The notes under the pieces are model-generated. The model was given only the letters and a program-made list of their open reading frames with translations, made no database searches and was not told the origin of the DNA. DNA of 20,000 bases from Chiloscyllium plagiosum (Eukaryota): contig NC_057755.1 of the NCBI RefSeq assembly GCF_004010195.1, forward strand, positions 11,843,443 to 11,863,442. Reading direction: 5' to 3'. Made by a program: the position numbers and the translations under genes. How positions within the stretch are numbered: the stretch's first letter is position 1; every line of letters starts with the position of its first letter. Positions 1 to 20,000 of the stretch are shown here, in pieces.

Positions 1-590
1 AAAGATCCTTTGGGGTCTTGGACAGAGGTGAGGGGGGAGGTGGGAGTTCAGGTTTTCCACCTCTTGCAGTGGCGAGTGAAGGTGCTGGGTGTGGAGGGTG
101 AGTTAGGCATGGACCAAACGAGAGAGTCACGAATGGAATGGTTTCTGTGGAATGCAAATAGGGGTGGGGAGGGAAATATAGCTCTGCTGGTGGGGTCTAA
201 TTGTAGTTGGTGGAAATGGCGGAGGATAATGTGCTGTATACTGAGATTGGAGAATCAACGTTTCGGGCATAAGCCCTTCTTTGGGCTTATGACCGAAACG
301 TCGATTCTCCTGTTCCTTGGATGCTGCCTGACCTGCTGCGCTTTTCCAGCAACACATTTTCAGCTCTGATCTCCAGCATCTGCAGTCCTCACTTTCTCCT
401 GTATATGGAGATTAGTGGGTTGGAAGCTGAAGACCAGGGGGATTCTATCCATGTGATTAGAGGAGTGTTGTCCAAGAGCAGAGGTGCAGGAAGTGGAGGG
501 TGTTGTTGATCACATGGGTGGGGAAATTGCAGTCTGTGAAATAGGATGCACTGAAGGGCATTGTTAATCATGTTGAAGGGGAAATTCCTT
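1..590 (-). mobile_element. Penelope-like retroelement fragment (region between RT and GIY-YIG), interrupted by a mini pLTR insertion at 249-399
   Basis: 1-240 aligns by eye with 16971-17210 of the PLE that carries YIDD and GIY-YIG motifs (e.g. GGGTGGGGAGGGAAATATA..CTG.TGGTGGGGTC). Boundaries approximate. Confidence 0.75.
249..399 (+). mobile_element. Short PLE pseudo-LTR insertion with 28-bp inverted 5' arm
   Basis: Arms 249-276 and 283-310 are near-perfect inverted repeats. The element ends in the shared CTCCAGCATCTGCAGTCCTCACTTTCTCC terminus and is flanked by an imperfect duplication CTGTATA(CT/TG)GAGATT. Confidence 0.8.
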
Positions 591-595
591 GAAAT

Positions 596-745
596 AGAAT
601 CTCCTCCACTTCCTGCACCTCCGCCCTTGAACCCCACCCCACCAACAAAAAGGATAGAAACGCCCCCACCCCGGCCATCACCTTCCATCCCAATAATCTC
701 AGCATACAGCGCATTATCCTCTGCCATTTTGGTTGCAGTCTTCCT
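596..745 (+). mobile_element. PLE fragment in opposite orientation to its neighbours
   Basis: CTCCTCCACTTC..GCACC..GCCCTTGAACCCCACCCC...CATACAGCGCATTATCCTC is the reverse complement of the PLE segment seen at ~220-500 and 17190-17310. Confidence 0.65.
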
Positions 746-774
746 AAGGGGAAAATGAGGTATTTTCTTCCAGC

Positions 775-2095
775 TTGTGCTGGAAGGTATGTTTTTGGGC
801 CCTTGGATACAGAGAAGGTAAATGGGCAGGTGTTACACCTTTGGTAGTTGCAGGGGAAGGTGCCATGGGACTGTGGGTGGGTGTTGGGAATGAAGGAAGA
901 TTGGACCAAGGTGTCATGAAGGAAACTTGGCCCTGCAGAAGGCGCACAAGGAAGAGGAGGGGAATGTGTCTGCTGGTGACATCTTGCTGGAGGTGGTAGA
1001 AATGGCAGCTGGATGTGGATGTTGGTGGGATAATAGGTAAGGACAAGGGGAACTCTATCGCTGTTGCAGGAGGGAAGAGAAGGGGTGAGGACAGATGTGC
1101 GGCAGATGAATCAGACCCATTGACGGCCCAGTTGCCAACGGTGCTGTGAAATGCACGGTTGAGGAAGAAGGTAGACATTCGGAGGCTCTCGTTGAGGTTT
1201 GCCTCATCAAAACGTATGTGATGAAGGAATTGGGAGAATGGAATGGAGTTCTTAACAGAAACAGGGTGCGAGGATGTATTTTCCAGGTAGCTGTGGAAGT
1301 CGGGTTTATAGTGGACATTGGTGGCAGAAATGGAAATAGATGTCAAGGAAGGGAAGGGAGGAGTCAAAGATAGACCAGGTGAAAGTGAGGGTGGGGTGGA
1401 AATTGGAAGCAAAATCGATTAACTTTCCCAATCCCAGCCAAGAGAGGGAAGCAGCATTTATGATATCGATATATTAAAGAAAGAGTTGTGGGTGGGCTCC
1501 AGAATAGGACTGGAACAAGGAATGTTCCATGTAACCCATGAAGAGACAGGCATAACTGAGGCCAATGGCCACCCCTCTGACCTGGAGAAAATAAGTTAAA
1601 AGAGAAGTTGAGGGTGAGGCCAAGCTCAGCCAAGTGGAAGAGAGTGATGGTGAGTGGGGATGATTCAGACCTTTGTTTCAGGAAGAAGTGGAGAGCCCTG
1701 AGACTATCCTGGTGGAGGATGGATGTGTAAAGGGATTGCACATCGCTGGTAAAGAGGAGGCGGCTGAAGCCTGAAAACTGGAAACTCCAAAACTGGCGTA
1801 AAGTGTCAGAGGAATTACGGGTGTACGTTGGCAGGGACTGGACCACTGGAGAAAAGATTCAATTAAGGTAGAAAGAGATGGGTTCTGTGGGGTAGGAGCA
1901 GACTGAAACAATGGGCAGTCCTGTTTTTGGATTTTTGGAAGGAGGTAGAAGCAATCTGTGGGGCTGGTGGACGATCAGTTTGGAGGCAGTGGGGGAGAGG
2001 TCACCGGATGAAATGAGCCCTGTGACCGTGGTTGACATAATGGCCTCATGTCATCGTGGGCTCATGATCCAGAGGTATCTGTACAACAGCACCAG
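775..2095 (-). mobile_element. Decayed Penelope-like element, reverse transcriptase region
   Basis: Minus-strand translations contain PLE RT motifs LFTSDVQSLYTSILH, LAELGLTLN and the thumb-like TNVHYKP..HSYL..TSSHP...KNSIPFSQFL. Multiple frameshifts. Confidence 0.85.
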
Positions 2096-3650: not shown

Positions 3651-4150
3651 NNNNNNNNNNNNNNNNNNNNNNNNNNNNNNNNNNNNNNNNNNNNNNNNNN
3701 NNNNNNNNNNNNNNNNNNNNNNNNNNNNNNNNNNNNNNNNNNNNNNNNNNNNNNNNNNNNNNNNNNNNNNNNNNNNNNNNNNNNNNNNNNNNNNNNNNNN
3801 NNNNNNNNNNNNNNNNNNNNNNNNNNNNNNNNNNNNNNNNNNNNNNNNNNNNNNNNNNNNNNNNNNNNNNNNNNNNNNNNNNNNNNNNNNNNNNNNNNNN
3901 NNNNNNNNNNNNNNNNNNNNNNNNNNNNNNNNNNNNNNNNNNNNNNNNNNNNNNNNNNNNNNNNNNNNNNNNNNNNNNNNNNNNNNNNNNNNNNNNNNNN
4001 NNNNNNNNNNNNNNNNNNNNNNNNNNNNNNNNNNNNNNNNNNNNNNNNNNNNNNNNNNNNNNNNNNNNNNNNNNNNNNNNNNNNNNNNNNNNNNNNNNNN
4101 NNNNNNNNNNNNNNNNNNNNNNNNNNNNNNNNNNNNNNNNNNNNNNNNNN
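3651..4150. other. Assembly gap (500 N)
   Basis: Run of exactly 500 N, probably a fixed-size scaffold spacer. True length unknown. Confidence 0.99.
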
Positions 4151-4799
4151 TTTCACTATAGAACATTGTTTGTAGGAATGTCTCTCAGGGACTACAATTT
4201 ACAAAAACCTTTTCATCTGACTGCCTGCTCCTGATCTTTGGTGAGGAAACTAAGCTAGGTGGACCATTTTGCTAATGCAACACTCCAGGCTTGTTTTGTC
4301 ATTGAAAGTTTTCTTGTCCTTATCCTTTCCTACTGAGTGCAATGACTCTTGCTGGCATACAGTTCCACGACCACAAGCCATCAGGGATGTCATCGATGTG
4401 GCTGGTCTTTGTGAGAGAATGAGACCACTGTCAGCAATGAGATCGAGCAGTAACAGTAATGAGGCAGTGCTGGATTGCAGAATTACAGTGAACTCTGTTA
4501 GAAGAGTTGAGTAAGATTTTTCTCTCAAATTCTCCAACTTCCTTTATTTCTGTCACCAGAGTTTGTGAAAAGTCATCTCTTCTCAGCTGAAGTTACTGTT
4601 CAATTGTATCTGATGGGACTCTTTGCCTCAACTTCATTCTCTTTGGAGGGATTTCCTTGTCTTTGTCTTCCATCCCACCCAACTCCATATTTACTGAATC
4701 AGTTGAAATTTACCTTACATGCAAGATGATCTCACTGCCTCCCCCACCCGAAGCACATCTTCTCCCTCATCTCCCTGCTCTCTGTTCAGTCAACCATCA

Positions 4800-5008
4800 G
4801 TTGAAACTTTATTGCTGGAACAGCACAGCAGGTCAGGCAGCATCCAGGGAACAGGAGATTCGACGTTTCGGGCACAGGCCCTTCTGAAGAAGGGCCTGTG
4901 CCCGAAACGTCGAATGTCCTGTTCCCTGGATGCTGCCTGACCTGCTGTGCTGTTCCAGCAATAAAGTTTCAACTTTGATCTCCAGCATCTGCAGACCTCA
5001 CTTTCTCC
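4800..5008 (+). mobile_element. Mini PLE insertion: inverted pLTR pair (palindrome 4800-4973) plus 35-nt tail, 14-bp TSD
   Basis: 86-bp arms, 2-nt spacer, one mismatch. TCAGTCAACCATCA is duplicated at 4786-4799 and 5009-5022. Confidence 0.9.
4884..4914 (+). ncRNA. Minimal type I hammerhead ribozyme motif (helix I weakened by the inversion junction)
   Basis: CTGAAGA-A-GGGC-CTGT-GCCC-GAAAC-GTC: conserved CUGANGA and GAAA boxes, 4-bp helix II, GUC triplet. Confidence 0.7.
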
Positions 5009-5444
5009 TCAGTCAACCATCATACCTGTTCAGTATGAAGTCAAGCAACTGTTTGCTTTTCACCACCTGGTATCATTATTCAGGTCCCAACACCTGTAGC
5101 AGATAAGGTAAGAAGTCATGTACAAATAGAACATAAAACAGTATAGCACAGGAGCAGGCCCTTTGGCCCACCATATCTGCACCAGCCATGATGCAATCTA
5201 AATTAATCCAATCTGCTGGCACATGGTCCATATCCCTGTATTCTCTGTCTGCTCATGTATCTATCGAAATGCCTCTTAAACATTGTTATAGTATCTGTGT
5301 CTACCACCTCCCCAGGCATTGTATTCCAGTCACCTACTATCCCTGTGTGAAAAAAAAAACTCCTTGCACGTCTCATCTTAAACCTCATCTTAAACCTGTG
5401 CTTCCTGGTATTTGACATTACTACCTTGGAAAAGAGACTCCAAT

Positions 5445-5570
5445 GGAGAAAGTGAGGTCTGCAGATGCTGGAGATCAAAGTTGAAACTTTATTGCTGGAA
5501 CAGCACAGCAGGTCAGGCAGCATCCAGGGAACAGGAGATTCGACGTTTCGGGCACAGGCCCTTCTTCAGG
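5445..5570 (-). mobile_element. Solo mini PLE pLTR insertion with 13-bp TSD
   Basis: AAGAGACTCCAAT is duplicated at 5432-5444 and 5571-5583. Sequence is essentially identical to the 4800-5008 element. Confidence 0.9.
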
Positions 5571-5572
5571 AA
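5539..5572 (-). ncRNA. Minimal type I hammerhead ribozyme motif (best preserved copy)
   Basis: Minus strand reads TTC-CTGAAGA-A-GGGC-CTGT-GCCC-GAAAC-GTC-GAA: helix I TTC/GAA, helix II GGGC/GCCC, and self-complementary ACGT in place of helix III. Confidence 0.75.
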
Positions 5573-6847
5573 GAGACTCCAATATCCACCTTATCTGTGC
5601 CTCTCAATTTTATATACTTATACCTGTTCACCCCACAGCCTCTGACAGCCTTGCAAAAACAATCCAAGTTTGTCCAAACTTTCCTTGTAGCTAATACACT
5701 GTCATCCAGGCAGCATCCTGGTAAAGTTCTTCTGCATCCTCTCCAAAGTCTCCACATTCTACCCATAATCTGTCATCCAGAATTTCACACGGTACTCCAA
5801 ATGTAGCCTAACCAAAAGCCCTATTCGGTTACAACATGACTTTACCAACTTGTATACTCAATGCCCCGATTGATAAAGGCAGCATGCCATATGTTTTCTT
5901 TACCACCTTATACACATTTGTTTCCATTTTCAAGGAACTAGGGCCTTGGACCAGAATGCAGCCATTTACTGTATATCTTCCTCTTGCATTTGACCTCCCA
6001 AAATGCCTCACCTCTAACTTGTCCCAAATACACTTCACCTGCCATTTCCCTGCACAACTTTCCAGTACATCCTTTGATATCCTTCCTCACTACCACAAAT
6101 TCACCAATTTTCATGTCATCTGCAAACTTATTAATCACAACATGTACATTTCATCCAAATCATTTATGTATATTAGAAATGACAGAGGTCCCAGCACTTG
6201 TGTGCAGTTCTTTTTGTTTTTTAAATAACGTTGGTGATTGTCCAATATTCTGGGACTTCACCAGTGGTTGAAGAAGATATAAAACCTCTGCCTAGGCCCC
6301 AGCAATCTCCTCCATTGCTGCTCCGGTATCTTGGGATAGATCCCATTAGGCTTTGGGGACTTGCTTGTTTTTCAAGACACCAACACCAAGTCCTCCTTAA
6401 TGTAAGCATGACTTAGATTGTCGACAAACTTATCTGGGATTTTCCTAATCTGCAAAATTCTATACCCTGTTCGCAGTGTACCCTTTATGTTGGAGGAACT
6501 ATATCTCAATTAAGTTAATTTCCCAGATGCACTCCAATGTCCAGCGAGACATGAATTCAAAACAGTAAGGGCCGTAACTGCGTAGGTTCTCTCTCTCTCT
6601 CTCTCCTGCACTGTCCTCACCATGTGCTTCCTTTGTCTGTTCTTCTCCCTTTTAAGACTGCTGTTGTTTTGACTTTTTTTTTCCAAAGTTCCAAAACAAT
6701 ACAACAGCATATGAAACAGTAATTACTGCTCCTGGAATTCGAGGAAATCACCTCCAGCACCTAAAATATCTCAAAAAAAGGAGCAGCAGTTACAGCCAGA
6801 AATTTTTCCCGTCCTCTATCTTGGATTACCCAGAATCCTCATCATCT

Positions 6848-8372
6848 TAGAGAAGTGATTGCTGGGACTCTTGCTGAGATATTTGTATCATCGATAGTCA
6901 CAGGTGAGGTGCCGGAAGACTGGAGATTGGCAAACGTTCCACTGTTTAAGAAGGGTGGTAAGGACAAGCCAGGAAATTATAGACCAGTGAGCCTGACCTC
7001 AGTGGTGGGCAAGTTGTTGGAGGGAATCCTGAGGGACAGGATGTACATGTATTTGGAAAGGCAAGGACTGATTAGGGATCATCAACATGACTTTGTGAGT
7101 GGGAAATCATGTCTCACAAACTTGATTGAGTTTTTTGAAGGAGTAACAAAGACGATTGATGAGGGAAGAGCAGTAGATGTGATCTATATGGACTTCAGTA
7201 AGGCGTTCAACAAGGTTCCCCATGGTAGACTGATTAGCAAGGTTAGATCTCATGGAATACGGGGAGAACTAGCCATTTGGATACAGAACTTGCTCAAAGG
7301 TAGAAGACAGAGGGTGGTGGTGGAGGGTTGTTTTTCAGACTGGAGGCCTGTGACCAGTGACCAGTGGAGTACCACAAGGATCGGTCCTGGGTCCTCTACT
7401 TTTTGTCATTTACATAAATGATTATATGGGAGAATAAGAGGTACAGATAGCAAGTTTTCAGATGACACCAAAATTGGAGGTGTAGTGGACAGTGAAGTGG
7501 GTTACCTCAGATTACAACAGGATCTTGACTAGATGGGCCAATGGGCTGAGAAGTGGCAGATGGAGTTTAATTCAGATAAACATGAGGTGCTGCATTTTGG
7601 GAAAGCAAATCTTAGCAGGACTTATACACTTAATGGTAAGGTCCTAGGGAGTGTTGCTGAACAAAGAGACCTTGGAGTGCAGGGTCATAGCTCCTTGAAA
7701 GTGGAGTCGCAGGTAGATAGGATAGTGAAGAAGGTGTTTGATATGCTTTCCTTTATTGGTCAGAATATTGAGTACAGGAGTTGGGAGGTCATGTTGCAGC
7801 TGTACAGGACATTGATTAGGCCACTGTTGGAATATTGAATGCAATTCTGGTCTCCTTCCTATTGGAAAGATGTTGTGAAACTTGAAAGGGTTCAGAAAAG
7901 ATTTATAAGGATGTTGCCAGGGTTGGAGGATTTGAGCTATAAGGAGAGGTTGAAAAGGCTGGGGCTGTTTTCCCTGGAGCGTCAGAGGCTGAGGGGTGAC
8001 CGTTTAGAGGTTTACAAAATTATGAGGGGCATGGATAGGGTAAATCGGCAAAGTCTTTTCCCTGGGGTTGGTGAATCCAGAACTAGAGGGCATAGGTTTA
8101 GGGTTAGAGGGGAAAGATATAAAGGAGACCTACGGGGCAATTTTTCCACACAGAGGGTGGTACGGGTATGGAATGAGCTGCCAGAGGACGTGGTGGAGGC
8201 TGGTATAATTGCAACATTAAAGAGGCATTTGGATGGGTATATGAATAGGAAGGGTTTGGAGGGATATGGACCAGTGTTGGCAGGTGGGACTAGATTGGGT
8301 TGGGATATCTGGTCGGCATGGACGGGTTGGACCGAAGGGTCTGTTTCCATGCTGTACGTCTCTATGACTCTA
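6848..8372 (+). mobile_element. 5'-truncated CR1/HER1-type LINE, RT through 3' tail, inactivated
   Basis: VPEDWRLANVPLFKKG..PGNYRPVSLTSVVGK, YMDFSKAF, KFSDD, RPLLEY*, WNELP. A 7-bp tandem duplication (GTGACCA, 7350-7363) shifts the frame, there is a stop at 7836-7838, and the tail is CTCTATGACTCTA. Confidence 0.95.
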
Positions 8373-8536
8373 AGTGAACAAGGTACATGAAAATTTCACA
8401 AATTGGAGTGTATTTATCATTTTCAGGTTGCAGCTCTGAAACAGCACTATAAAATTGCTTTCCATCTGTAAAATTGTAAGATCTTCATGTTTTGATGTAT
8501 CATATTAAAGATCAGTAGAGTAAATCTGCCAGGGTA

Positions 8537-9122
8537 AACATAAACATAGAAACATAGAAGATAGGAGCAAGAGCAGGCCATCAGCCCTTTGAGCCTGCTC
8601 TACCATTCGTCACCATTATGGTTGATCATCTAACTCAGTACCTTAATTCTGCTTTCTTCCTATAACCTTTGATCCCATTCACCCTAAATCCTAAATCTCG
8701 CTGCCTCTTGATTACATTTAATATTTTGACATCAACTACTTCCAATGGTAATGAATTTCACAGGTTCACCACTCTTTGGGTGAAGAAATATCTCCTTGTC
8801 TCCATCCTAAATGGTCCACTCTGAATCCTCAGATTGTAATGCCTGTTCTGTACACACCCACTAGCAGAAACATCCTTCCTGCATCTACCCTGTCTAGTCC
8901 CGTTAGTATTTTGTAAGTCTCTATGAGATCCTCCCTCACTCGTCTGAACTCCAGCAAAAATAATCCTAACCTAGTCAATCTCTCCTCATGTGTCAGTCCC
9001 ACCATCCCTGGAATCAACATGGTAAACCTTTGCACTCACTCGAGAGCAAGATCATCCTTCCTTAGCAAAGGAAACCAAAACTGCACACAATATTCTTGGT
9101 GTGGATCACCAAGGCCCTGTAT
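8537..9122 (-). mobile_element. CR1-clade LINE 3' fragment
   Basis: AAACATAG-type tail repeats at ~8537-8560. Minus translation QRFTMLIPGMVGLTHEERLTRLGLFLLEFRRVREDLIETYKIL. Confidence 0.9.
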
Positions 9123-12229: not shown

Positions 12230-12670
12230 TAAAATCTTAAGTTATCTCGGGAATGTGACTTGAAAGAAGTTCTGGAGTTTACATATTAATGAATCAAAAT
12301 GCACTCATTTTATGTGACTAAGACTTAACAGCAATCTTGATTTATTCAATATATTGCATCAGTTGTATAACAGTTTGATCTTTTACTGTAAATTGTGTGT
12401 CCTCTGATTCTGAGGAGAAAGTGAGGACTGCAGATGCTGGAGATCGGAGCTTAAAAATGTGTTGCTGGAAAAGCGCAGCAGGTCAGGCAGCATCAAAGGA
12501 GAAGGAGAATTGACGTTTCGGGCATAAGCCATTCTTCCAGCAACACATTTTTAAGCTCTGTCCTCTGATTCTGCCCCACTAGCTACCTGATAAAGGAGCA
12601 GGTTCCAAAAGTTTGTATTTCCAAATACAATCATCAGACTATAACCTAGTGGTTTGTGATTTTTAACTTT
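12230..12670 (+). mobile_element. 3' end of a third PLE-like family, interrupted at 12413-12558, with a degenerate hammerhead at ~12587-12612
   Basis: CTGATAA-A-GGAGC-AG-GTTCC-AAAA matches the CUGAUGA/helix II/GAAA layout with two G>A changes. Family assignment is inference. Confidence 0.55.
12413..12558 (-). mobile_element. Mini PLE pLTR insertion with 24-bp inverted arm and 15-bp TSD
   Basis: TGTCCTCTGATTCTG is duplicated at 12398-12412 and 12559-12573. 12535-12558 is the inverted copy of 12447-12470. Confidence 0.9.
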
Positions 12671-13420: not shown

Positions 13421-16335
13421 AGAAGACAGAACAATACAGAACAGGCCCTTCAGCCCTCGATGTTGCGTCGACCTGTGAACTATTCTCAACTCGTCCCCCT
13501 ACACTATCCCAAAATCATCCATATGCTTATCTAAGGATCGTTTAAATCTCCCTAATGTGGCTGAGTTGACTACCTTAGCAGGTCAGGCATTCCACGCCCA
13601 TACGACTCTCTGCGTAAAGAACTTGCCTCTGACATCTGTCTTAAATCTATCACCCCTCAATTTGTAGTTATGCCCTCTCGTACAAGCTGACATCATCATC
13701 CTAGGAAAACGTCTTTCTCTGTCTACCTATCTAATCCTCCGATCATCTTGTATGTCTTTATCAAATCCCCCCTTAGCCTTCTTCTTTCCAATGAGAACAG
13801 ACCCAAGTCTCTCAGCCTTTCCTCTTAAGACCTTCCCTCCAGACCAGACAACATCCTGGTAAATCTCCTCTGCACCTTTTCCAATGCTTCCATATCCTTT
13901 CTGTAAGGGGGCGACCAGAACTGTACACAATATTCCAAGTGTGGCCGCACCCATCTACACTACCAAGAATCTTTCCATTGACCAAATACTCTGCCATCCT
14001 GTTATTCTTCCCAAAGTGCATCATCTCACATTTGGCTACATTGAACTCCATTTGCCATCTCTCAGCCCAATTCTGCAATTTATCCAAGTCCCCCTGCAAC
14101 CTGTAACATTCTTCCAAACTGTCCATTACTCCACCAACTTTAGGGTCGTCTGCAAATTTACTAATCCATCCATCTAAGCCTGTGCCTAAGTCATTTATAA
14201 AAATGACCAATAGCAGTGTTCCCACAACAGATCCTTGTGACACACCACTAGTAACTGGACTCCAGACTGAATATTTTCCATCAACCACCACTCGCTGCTG
14301 TCTTTCAGAAAGCCAGTTTCTAAACCCAACTGCTAAATCGCCCTCCATTCCATGCCTCTGCATTTTCTCCATCGGCCTACCATGTGGAACCTTATCAAAG
14401 GCTTTACTGAAGTCCAAGTATACCACGTCAACTGCCCTACCCTCCTCTACATGTTTGGTCACCTTCTCAAAAAACTCAGTGAGGTTTGTGAGACACGACC
14501 TGCCCGTGACGAAACCATGTTGACTATCTGAAATCAAATTGTTGCTTGCTAGATGATTATAAATCTTATCTCTCATAATCCTTTCCAAAACCTTTCCTAC
14601 AACAGAAGTAAGGCTCACTGGTCTATAATGACCTGGGTCATCTCTGCTGCCCTTCTTGAACAAGGGCACAACATTTGCAATCCTCCAGTCGTCAGGTACT
14701 AAACGTGTAGACAATGATGACTCAAATATCAAAGCCAAACGCTCCGCTATCTCCTCCCTAAGCTTCCCAGAGAATCCTCGGATAAATCCCATCCAGCCCA
14801 GGGGATATGCCTACTTTCACTCCTTCTAGAATTGATAACACCTGTTTGTAACTAACCTTGATCCTTTCTAGTCTAATATCTCATACCTCATCCTTTTCCT
14901 CTACAATATTCTCCTTGCCCTGAATGAACACCGATGAGAAATGTTCATTTAGCACCTCTCTGATCTCCACAGGGTCCACACTGAACTTCCCACTTCTGTC
15001 TTTGACTGGCCCTATTCCTTCTCTCGTCACCCTTTTACTCTTCACATATGTATAGAAAGCTATAGGGTTCTCCTTTATTCTGTTGGCTAAAGACTGCTCG
15101 TGTCCTCTCTTTGCTCTTCTTAAATTTCTCTTTAAATACTTCCTAGCTGATCTGTAATTCTCCATCGCTTCATCTGAACCATCTTGCCTCATCAACATGT
15201 AAGTCTCCCTCTTCTGCTTAACAAGAGATGTACTTTCTGTAGTAAACCACGGTTCCCTTACCTTATCACTTCCCCCCGCCTGATAGGGACGTACCTATCA
15301 AGGACACGCAATATCTGTTCCTTAAACCAACTCCACATTTCGATTGTCTGCATCTCCTGCATTTTGCTACCCCATTCTATCCATCCTAATACTTGCTTAA
15401 TCGCATCATAATTGCCCTTGCCTCATCGATAACTCTTGACCTGTGGCATGTACCTATCCCTTTCCATCACTAAACTAAACGTAACTGGATTATGGTCAAT
15501 CTCTCCAAAGTGCTCACCTACAACCAAATCAAACACTTGGCCTGGTTCATTACCAAGCATCAGATCCAGTGTGGCCTCCCCTCTTGTCAGCCCTTCGACA
15601 TACTGTGTCAGGAAACCCTCCTGTACACATTTGACAAAAACAGATCCATTTGACGTACTAGAGCTGTAACATTTCCAATCAATGTTGGGGAAGTTAAAGC
15701 CCCCCATAATGACCACCCAGTTCCTTTCACTCCTACCCAGAATAATGTTGCTAATCCTCTCTTCCACCTCCCTGGAACTCTGCAGAGGCCTATAAATAAA
15801 CTCCAAAAAGTGTGACCTCTCCTGTTTCTAACCTCAGCCCACACTACTTCAGTAGACGAGTCCTCATCAAAATTTCTGCCCCACCGTTATACTATCCTTG
15901 ACGAACAAGTCCACGCCTCCCCTTTTTTACTGCCTTGCCTGTTTTCAATGAAAGATCTAAACCCTGGAACCTGCAACATCCATTCCTCACCCTGCTCTAT
16001 CCATGTCCCAGGTCTCTGTCCATGCTGCAAGCTCACCTACCTTATTTCGGATACTTCTGGCATTGAAGTAGACACACTTCAAACCACTTCGCTGTCTGCC
16101 AGTACATTCCTGTGACCCTGAAATCCTGTCTCTGTCCTTCCTACTCTCATCCTCCTGTGCACTGCAGCTACACCTCCGGTTCCCATCCTCCTGCTGAACT
16201 AGTTTAAACCCACCCGTATAGCACCAGCAAATTTCCCACCAAGGATATTAGTATCCCTCTGGTTCAAGTGAAGACCGTCCTGATTGAGCCCCAATTATCC
16301 AAAAACCTGAAACCCTCCCTCCTGCACCATCCTTG
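13420..16335 (-). mobile_element. Long CR1-clade LINE remnant: APE endonuclease + RT + 3' tail, frameshifted and internally deleted
   Basis: APE motifs IYRP, MGGFNFPNIDW, LDL, EHFGEIDHN (15423-15806). RT ORF 13812-14792 with YLDFSKAFDKV, SQGSVVG, KFADD. A deletion near 13949 joins GSVD to the VRPHLEY segment out of frame. Confidence 0.95.
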
Positions 16336-16362
16336 CAGGACTTGTCTGCCTTAATCCCAATA

Positions 16363-18065
16363 GGAGAAATTGAGGACTGCAAATGCTGTAGATTGGATTT
16401 GAGAGTGTAGTGCTGGAATAGCACGGTAGGTCAGGCAGCATCCGAGGAGCAGGAGAATCGACGTTTCGGGCATAAGCCTTTCATTAGGAATGAGGCTTGC
16501 GGATCAGGGCTGAGAGATAAATGGGATGGGGGTGGGGTTGTGAGGAGCTAGCTGGAAAAGCAATAGATGGATGAAGGCGAGGTGATAGGTCAGAGGGGGC
16601 AGTGATGGACGGGTCCGGAGGGCAGTGCCGAGTTGAAGGGTTGGGAGTGCGATAATATGGGGGGAGGGGAAATGAGGAAGCTGTTGAAATCCACATTTAT
16701 CCTGTGTGGTTGCAAGGTCCCAAGGCGAAACATAAGGTGTTTCTCCAGGTAAGGGTTTGGCGGTGGAGGAGGCCCAGGCCCTGCATGTCCTTGACTGAGT
16801 GGGAGGGGGAGTTGAAGTGTTCAGCCACGGATCGGTGGGGTTGGTTGTTCTCTGAAACAATCCGCAAGAAAGCATCTTGTCTCCCTGATATAGAGGCGAC
16901 CATACTGGGTGCAACGAATGCAGTAGATGACATTGGTAGAGGTGCAGGTGAATGTCTGATGGATGTGGAAGGATCCCTTTGAGCTTTGGAAGGAGGTGAG
17001 GGGAAAAGTGTGGGCGGATGTTTCACACTTCCTGCGATGGCAGAGAAAGATGCCAGGAATGGGGTGTGGACTGGTGGGGGGTGTGGATCTGACGAGGGAG
17101 TCGCAGAGGGAAGTCTTTTGGAATACTGATAGGGATGGGGAGGGAAATATATCTCTGGTGGTGGGGTCTGTTTGGAGGCGGCAGAAGTGGCGGAGGATGT
17201 GTTGTATGTGGAGGTTGGTGGGGTGGAAGGTGAGGAGTGGGGGCGGGGGTCCGTCCTTGTTGCGTCAGGAGGGGTGGGGTTCAAGGGCAATGGTGCGTGA
17301 AGTGGAGGAGATGCACTGGAGGGCATCATCAACTACATGGGAAGGGAAGTTGCGATCTTGGAAGAAGGAGGCCATCTGGGACTTTGAGGTGGGATAGCTC
17401 ATCCTGGGAACAGATGCGATGGAGGTGGAGGAATTAGGAATAAGGAATGGTGTTTTTACACGAGGTAGGGTGGGAGGAGGTGTAGTCTAAGTAGCTGTGG
17501 GAGTCTGTGGGCATGTAGTATATGTCTGTGTTTAGTCAGTTACCAGAGACAGTAATGGAGAGGTCGAGGAAAGGGAGGGAGGTTGTCGAGATGGTCCAGG
17601 TGAATTTGAGGTCGGGGTGGAAGGTTGTTGAACTGTTCAACCTCCTCATGGAAGCACGAGGTGGCGCTGATAAAGTCATCGATGTAGCGGAAGAACAGAA
17701 GGGGGTTGGTACCACTGTAACTGCAGAAGATGACAAACAGGCAGGTATAGCTGGGTCCCATGCGCGTGTCTATAGCTATCCCTTTGGTTTGGAGGAAATG
17801 GGAGGATTGGAAGAAGAGGTTTTTGAGGGTGTCAGTGGAAGGGACGGCGTGAGAGGAAGAAACAGAGTGCTTGGAGACCGTCGTCGTGGCAGATCAATGT
17901 GTACAGGGACTGGATGTCAATAGTGAAGATGGTGTGTTGTGGGCCGGAGAGACAAAAATCTTGGAGAAGGTGAAGGACGTGTGGTGTCACAAATGTAAGT
18001 GGGGAGTTCCTGGACTAAGGAGGAACAGGACGTTGTTGAGGTAGGAAGAGATGAGTGCGGTGAGT
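16363..18065 (-). mobile_element. 5'-truncated Penelope-like element: partial RT, GIY-YIG endonuclease, 3' UTR and pLTR with degenerate hammerhead
   Basis: MGPSYTCLF..FFRYIDDF (RT). FTCTSTNVIYCIRC..LYI(R)ET and VAEHFNSPSHS (GIY-YIG) at ~16790-16960. The pLTR at 16363-16495 is homologous to the mini insertions. Confidence 0.9.
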
Positions 18066-19655: not shown

Positions 19656-19658
19656 TAA

Positions 19659-20000
19659 GTGGGGACTGCAGATGCTGGAGAAGTCAGAATCGATAAAGTG
19701 TGGTGCAGGAAAAAGCTCAGTAGGTCGAGCAGCATCTGAGGAACAAAATAATTGATTTTTTGGGCATAACCCTTCCTCAGGACTGGGGAGGGGGGAAGGT
19801 GGTGGTGCTGGGAGAATGTAGGTGGGATGGCAATAGGTGGGTGAAGGTCAGATGTGCTTGTGATAGGCCGGTGGGAAGGAAGATGGACAGGTAGGTCAAG
19901 TGAAGAGGGTGGAGCCAAGTCACAGGGTTGGATCTAGGATGGGGTGGGGGGAGGGTAGATTAGGGAACTGGTGAGTTCAAAGCTGGGACCGTGTGGTTGT
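19659..20000 (-). mobile_element. PLE pLTR and 3' UTR, continues past the window end
   Basis: GGGGACTGCAGATGCTGGAG...GCAGCATCTGAGGAAC...GGGCATAACCCTTCCTCAGG followed by G-rich sequence like 16500-16700. Confidence 0.8.

Follow-up and report, generated by a model that had tools for sequence, protein, structure and literature searches.

Introduction

The Chiloscyllium plagiosum DNA analysed here, a stretch of 20,000 nucleotides that we refer to as the window, raises the question of whether a short minus-strand motif at 5539-5572 is a ribozyme, whether it is a new kind of ribozyme, and what it does for the element that carries it. The original prediction, made from the letters of the window, read it as a minimal type I hammerhead in the pseudo-LTR (pLTR) of a Penelope-like element (PLE), with an extra A after the core and no helix III of its own. 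It went on to suggest that the variant may be uncharacterised, that cleavage would require a dimer, and that five related copies lie in the same window. We have followed these claims through the window, the genome and the literature.

Results

The motif at 5539-5572

Both the letters and the strand of the motif agree exactly with the window sequence. Read from 5572 to 5539, the minus strand consists of TTC, CTGAAGA, A, GGGC-CTGT-GCCC, GAA-ACGT-C and GAA, and both core boxes (CUGANGA and GAAA-NN-UH) are present. Helix I has 3 bp, with its 5' strand at 5572-5570 and its 3' strand at 5541-5539. C3-A9 correspond to 5569-5563, and the extra A (5562) lies between positions 9 and 10.1. Helix II (5561-5550) is made of 4 bp, G10.1-C11.1 among them, and a tetraloop. 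G12-A14 (5549-5547) are followed by ACGU (A15.1-C-G-U16.1, at 5546-5543) and by C17 (5542), and the cut is predicted to fall at 5542/5541. An intramolecular helix III is absent; the 15.2-16.2 palindrome reads ACGU, which is self-complementary and has no loop, and helix III is possible only between two copies, as had been proposed. The core boxes, helix II and the location in a pLTR (see below) bear out the assignment to the minimal type I hammerheads of PLE pseudo-LTRs. The motif does not qualify as a canonical type I hammerhead of Rfam: it lacks helix III, and an Rfam scan of the window returned 18 matches at E<=10, none of them to a hammerhead family.

The native helix I of the subfamily, as read from copies that continue into the parent element, is AUUC/GAAU (4 bp). 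This native helix I together with helix II is the predicted minimum-energy fold. For the window copy (5539-5572) a competing hairpin is predicted, and the folding z-score of the motif is near 0.

The features of the window are as follows.

5539..5572, minus strand: intact minimal hammerhead (window sequence and descriptor match; cut site placed by hammerhead numbering)
5445..5570, minus strand: solo PLE stub of a young subfamily, hammerhead plus about 94 nt of downstream leader or 'tail'
5432..5444, no strand: 13-nt target-site duplication at the stub 3' end (window sequence)
5571..5583, no strand: 13-nt target-site duplication at the stub 5' end (window sequence)
4799..5009, no strand: two copies of the stub's subfamily in inverted, head-to-head orientation (arms 4799-4885 and 4888-4974, the long arm reaching about 5009)
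249..400, no strand: inverted pair of an older subfamily, CUGA box missing from both arms
400..2050, minus strand: degenerate PLE reverse transcriptase (RT) and endonuclease fragments (ORF translations, tblastn-type matches to PLE copies)
12410..12565, minus strand: stub without CUGA, with a short inverted arm
16362..17330, minus strand: 5'-truncated PLE 3' end, with degenerate GIY-YIG (16821-17264), 3' UTR, broken hammerhead and tail
19657..19782, minus strand: old decayed stub, GAAA lost (motif remnant 19756-19781)

Copies in the window

The hammerhead forms the 5' end of a solo stub of about 126 nt (5445-5570), and the 'TT' of helix I (5571-5572) doubles as the last 2 nt of the 13-nt target-site duplication. 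The 3' end of the stub is common to many copies, and among the matches listed six, the window itself included, are 100% identical over 131 nt. The five other copies are all present in the window, as had been claimed, and an intact core was found only in the one at 4884-4914 (+). This core lies in the middle of a near-perfect inverted repeat of 87 bp and is predicted to be sequestered within a single long hairpin. The copies at 249-285/283-400 and at about 12510-12537 are inverted junctions without the CUGA box, and the hammerhead at 16457-16490 is broken by G5>A and an altered 10.1. A further degenerate PLE fragment lies at 1-250. A descriptor of the motif (see below) matches the 20,000-nt window twice, at 4884 (+) and 5569 (-). 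Since the two intact copies lie on opposite strands, no cis dimer is possible.

Positions 3651-4150 of the window are a run of 500 N. The window also holds LINE remnants (RVT_1 and endonuclease Pfam matches) at 6765-7421 (+), 13812-14810 (-) and 15423-15827 (-), which are probably CR1-type and unrelated to the hammerhead motif.

The parent element

The segment 16821-17264 (-) of the window shares 66% identity with a PLE sequence, P0001, that has RT motifs and a Pfam GIY-YIG match; a first look at the genome gave 87,439 candidates for this piece. In undeleted copies (30 loci translated) the motif sits about 390-435 nt beyond the GIY-YIG match, 3' of the ORF stop. On the 5' side of the RT, the N-terminus of the ORF directly adjoins the sequence that lies downstream of the motif, and 3 of 30 junction loci have a direct 5' pLTR (about 300 nt) with an intact motif. 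Because the leader joins the ORF and direct 5' pLTR copies exist, the motif is present in both the 3' UTR and the 5' leader; its location is the pLTR of an element with RT and GIY-YIG. The linker between RT and endonuclease in P0001 is C-x4-C-x2-C. Passages of PMC8557442 give a CX2-5CxxC linker between RT and C-terminal GIY-YIG as a trait of Neptune/Nematis, and the parent element is probably a Neptune-type PLE.

An intact full-length element was absent among the copies retrieved, whose long 'open frames' consisted largely of N. At four loci a long low-complexity stretch rich in Thr, Pro and Ser separates the N-terminal domain of the PLE ORF from the RT.

The motif belongs to a published class

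The suggestion that the variant may be uncharacterised did not survive comparison with the text and Fig. S3 of Cervera and De la Pena (2014; PMC4209133). There, minimal hammerheads (min-HHRs) are defined by the absence of helix III and loop 3, and an unpaired base at the 5' end of stem II is given as conserved along with palindromic 15.2-16.2. Many rows of Fig. S3 have the extra A and C-G-U-C, for example Acropora Neptune and Nematostella (2). The Acropora digitifera Neptune row combines a GGGC-tetraloop stem with the extra A and C-G-U-C, and the Nematostella vectensis (2) row has a UUC/GAA helix I identical to that of the window copy. Passages of a 2017 review (PMC6155905) likewise describe PLE motifs as usually without helix III. 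As the absent helix III and the extra base belong to the published definition, and rows with ACGU-C exist, the claim of novelty fails. The PLE min-HHRs, as presented in these sources, resemble the window motif in lacking helix III, in the extra A, in G10.1-C11.1, in the 4-bp helix II with a tetraloop, in C15.2-G16.2, C17 and a 3-bp helix I, in their pLTR location and in occurring mostly as solo copies. Judged by its sequence, the window motif is a member of this already described class, which it extends to another vertebrate lineage.

De la Pena and Flores reportedly described, in 2001, an extra A after A9 in the CChMVd (+) hammerhead, and the window motif has its extra nucleotide at the same core position. 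The CChMVd (+) viroid ribozyme has a full helix III and loop-loop contacts, and is active as a monomer.

Cartilaginous fish are absent from the 56-row alignment of Fig. S3 (PMC4209133), and our literature search found no paper on a shark PLE hammerhead; the supplements of a retrozyme preprint may list chondrichthyan motifs. Sections of that preprint (bioRxiv 10.64898/2026.07.22.740005) describe animal non-LTR retrozymes as HHR-bearing, non-autonomous and related to PLE pLTRs, and report HHR retrozymes in one chondrichthyan. According to the same sections retrozymes are tandem arrays, whereas the stubs of the window family are solo or inverted.

Abundance and families of the motif

The exact 34-mer has 10,196 matches in the genome (5,083+5,113), compared with 0 for the reversed control. 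We also used a descriptor that required the core boxes, a helix II of at least 4 bp and a helix I of at least 2 bp, with the extra base optional, on 100 evenly spaced 10-kb stretches (974,491 non-N bases). It gave 65 matches, against 1, 0, 0 and 0 in reversed and shuffled controls, and in 63 of the 65 the extra base is present between 9 and 10.1. At this density, 65 in 0.97 Mb, the genome would hold about 240,000 descriptor-intact motifs; this extrapolated number is far above the 4,000-9,000 given for coelacanth and Xenopus in PMC4209133. Tail-bearing copies number 171 per 0.97 Mb, or about 600,000 by extrapolation, related families included.

A second scan, in which helix I and the palindrome were left unconstrained, gave 83 matches, which make up five families with one match unassigned. 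The strands of helix I pair within each of the five families (2-4 Watson-Crick pairs), as against 0-1 pairs across families. The palindromes also differ by family (ACGU versus AGCU), and their centre is CG or GC in 51 of the 83 matches and one of the CpG-decay forms TG and CA in 25 more. H17 is C, U or A, depending on the family. A U3-A8 core variant, with two descriptor matches, characterises one of the five families. Matches far exceed controls, and helix I and the palindrome covary across families.

The absent Rfam match and the flat folding z-score are what one would expect if the motif were a chance or decayed look-alike without ribozyme ancestry. This idea is contradicted by the 65 matches against 0-1 in controls, by covariation over five families and by position-specific conservation (see below), and we regard it as effectively refuted already, with next to no probability left to it.

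At least four further min-HHR families occur in the 100 stretches: one has an AGCU palindrome with H17=A, another a GGGUC stem with a GUU/AAC helix I, a third a 6-7-bp helix II with an extra U, and another a U3-A8 core that resembles the variant reported in Schistosoma.

Thirty loci comprised 9 solo copies, 13 with an inverted arm and 8 that are preceded by native 3' UTR. The window copies are solo or inverted, and none forms head-to-tail tandem units with complete HHRs. At many inversion junctions the complementarity of the helix I strands serves as microhomology.

Selection on the fold

For the conservation analysis, 166 copies were chosen on their flanks; 51 whose flanks were inverted arms and 10 that were out of register were removed, and the remaining 105 were clustered on non-hammerhead columns so that cluster majority lines could be compared. 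Among these 105 copies the majority lines show one differing column among the 15 of the core (a CpG site), none among the 8 of helix II or the 8 of helix I, and two among the 5 N7/loop columns; in the flanks, 7 of the 10 upstream columns and 5-7 of the 28 downstream ones differ. The core is thus more conserved than its flanks across subfamilies (p=0.0008-0.004 against both flanks), as the original prediction demanded. Against the downstream flank alone p is 0.02-0.09, and this contrast is weak, since the tail contains a conserved block as well. In reads and contigs, variation inside 5539-5572 is confined to N7, two bases of the loop and pair 3 of helix I, as against 16 variable positions in 5445-5538. 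Between subfamilies, the changes that recur affect N7, loop II and a single position of helix I.

These patterns indicate that the source elements are under selection for the fold. Since selection on source elements keeps the fold, a role in the RNA cycle of the element is likely. Overlap with the endonuclease ORF was considered as a source of the conservation and rejected: the ORF stops before the motif in the 30 loci translated, and the frame of the leader differs between subfamilies.

Cleavage and dimerisation

By nearest-neighbour energies a double hammerhead reaches -13.1 kcal/mol compared with -14.2 for two monomers (2 x -7.1); an inactive co-fold reaches -18.3 kcal/mol, and the ACGU duplex contributes -1.7. 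A dimer is thus not favoured by this energy model, which ignores non-canonical core pairs. For a Schistosoma motif, PMC4209133 reports no activity as a monomer and low activity as a dimer or trimer.

Dimerisation, on which cleavage had been predicted to depend, is not the sole route. The HHR of the Anolis carolinensis Poseidon element (PAc) cleaves only with the protein of the element (Frangieh et al., 2024; PMC11167929). PAc resembles the window family in several ways. Its HHR is part of the pLTR and immediately precedes the fixed 3' 'tail' ends; its unprocessed RNA is the template for insertion, and inserts of the window family likewise carry the uncut motif; and no RNA-seq ends fall at the cut (PMC11167929). 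They differ in the start of the ORF, which lies in stem II in PAc and likely well downstream of the tail in the window family. The C-x4-C-x2-C linker of the window family is, in the passages of PMC8557442 mentioned above, a Neptune/Nematis trait, and PAc belongs to a different PLE clade.

In one single-cell run there was no pile-up of RNA read ends at the cut site, and reads cross it on both strands; these 1,391 and 510 reads are family-level, multi-copy and probably read-through, and make a weak test for cutting. The reads of the same run gave no template-switch or end signal at the start of helix I, and a second sequencing run contained 0 reads of the family. Genomic inserts carry the motif uncut, and each intact genomic copy derives from uncut or re-ligated RNA.

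These observations could also mean that the motif is kept as a structural, promoter or protein-binding element of the pLTR that does no RNA cutting in vivo. Copies made from uncut RNA, the lack of read ends at the cut in the one single-cell run and in PAc, insertion of Anolis Poseidon that is unaffected by HHR mutants (PMC11167929), and a dimer that the energy model disfavours would all be expected. However, the variable sites (N7 and loop II, and H17 as C, U or A) are those that a catalytic hammerhead tolerates, the U3-A8 core variant occurs in two descriptor matches, and the Anolis HHR does cut when its protein is supplied. We consider a non-cutting role unlikely.

5' ends of the copies

The 5' ends of the copies were tallied by hand among the matches listed for two subfamilies (100 of 11,149 and 100 of 30,443), both arms of inverted pairs being counted. 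Among these matches, 38/100 and 27/100 run on into native upstream sequence, 128/200 end at -1 to -6 from C3, and 7/200 at -7 to -13. The hazard peaks at the A at -4, where helix I begins, and reaches 0.29 and 0.28 in the two subfamilies. The evenly spaced sample has 21/171 ends at -5..-1 and 7/171 at -40..-11. Among the matches listed, a G precedes 17 of 37 flank-type junctions at -4 (expected fraction 0.26, p=0.007; junctions classified by hand, one duplicate dropped); for one subfamily taken alone G precedes 9 of 23 such junctions among the matches listed, with no enrichment.

We tentatively propose, at somewhat less than even chances, that the transcript starts at the A of helix I as a capped RNA opening with the hammerhead, and that the stubs are copies of the leader that record the starts of transcription and of reverse transcription. 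The capped transcript would begin at the A that opens helix I, whose context we take to be initiator-like (YYA+1NWYY consensus). Reverse transcription initiated internally in the leader would copy the uncut 5' end and occasionally a cap-templated G. The hundreds of thousands of SINE-like hammerhead stubs would then be complete leader copies and not random 5' truncations. Passages of PMC2377424 and PMC3846280 place PLE promoters in the pLTR; in Drosophila Penelope they put the transcription start well upstream of the motif. Alternatively, the peak may arise from microhomology, and target duplications do overlap the first 1-4 bases in six of nine solo copies.

The junctions also bear on a proposal made in PMC4209133, that cutting is efficient in vivo and the RNA is re-ligated into retrozyme-like circles; the stubs would then have been copied from such circles or from cut RNA. 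We counted, by hand, 22 distinct flank-type junctions at the predicted cut base among 100 of 125 matches listed, which outnumber those at the neighbouring upstream base (5/27); however, they are equally frequent one base downstream (25/50). The cut site is thus a step against its upstream neighbour and no peak against its downstream one, in a comparison of three positions with different letter sets. In the evenly spaced sample there is no peak at the cut site, with 3/171 ends at +28..+30. Starts at the cut site make up at most about 1% of the subfamily, against about 23% for starts at the base that opens helix I, and the stubs are solo or inverted and form no head-to-tail arrays. We therefore hold efficient cutting with circle formation to be very improbable.

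In two inverted pairs, at C2:133328366 and C4:18253496-18253552, both arms seem to start at the predicted cut base. These pairs have a short spacer and would fit rare copying of cleaved RNA.

Discussion

Taken together, it is probable that the motif is the published PLE min-HHR, that the ribozyme of the parent element is weak and assisted by a dimer or a protein, and that the stub is an inert by-product.

We propose a model that addresses how the stubs arise and what the ribozyme does. The 3' ends of inserts fall at a small number of fixed sites, about 55-60 and 94 nt beyond the predicted cut. Reverse transcription would start inside the leader, as for Anolis Poseidon in vitro, and copy back across the uncut ribozyme. 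From a template that begins at helix I, a stub of 100-130 nt like that at 5445-5570 would result. The ribozyme of the parent element would be weak, and would cut only through ACGU pairing or with the protein of the element. Its role may be in trimming tandem precursors or in late processing, and it would not be needed for defining the ends of inserts. The genomic stub itself is likely an inert by-product.

The motif as stated matters little, being a class known since 2014 in another vertebrate lineage. The young subfamily, with more than 10,000 identical copies and a native helix I of 4 bp, is a good substrate for asking whether PLE min-HHRs cut in vivo, and whether as a dimer or with the aid of a protein. 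If the sharp 5' ends mark the start of transcription, they would map the RNA template of PLEs without experiments, and they would explain the solo min-HHRs that litter animal genomes.
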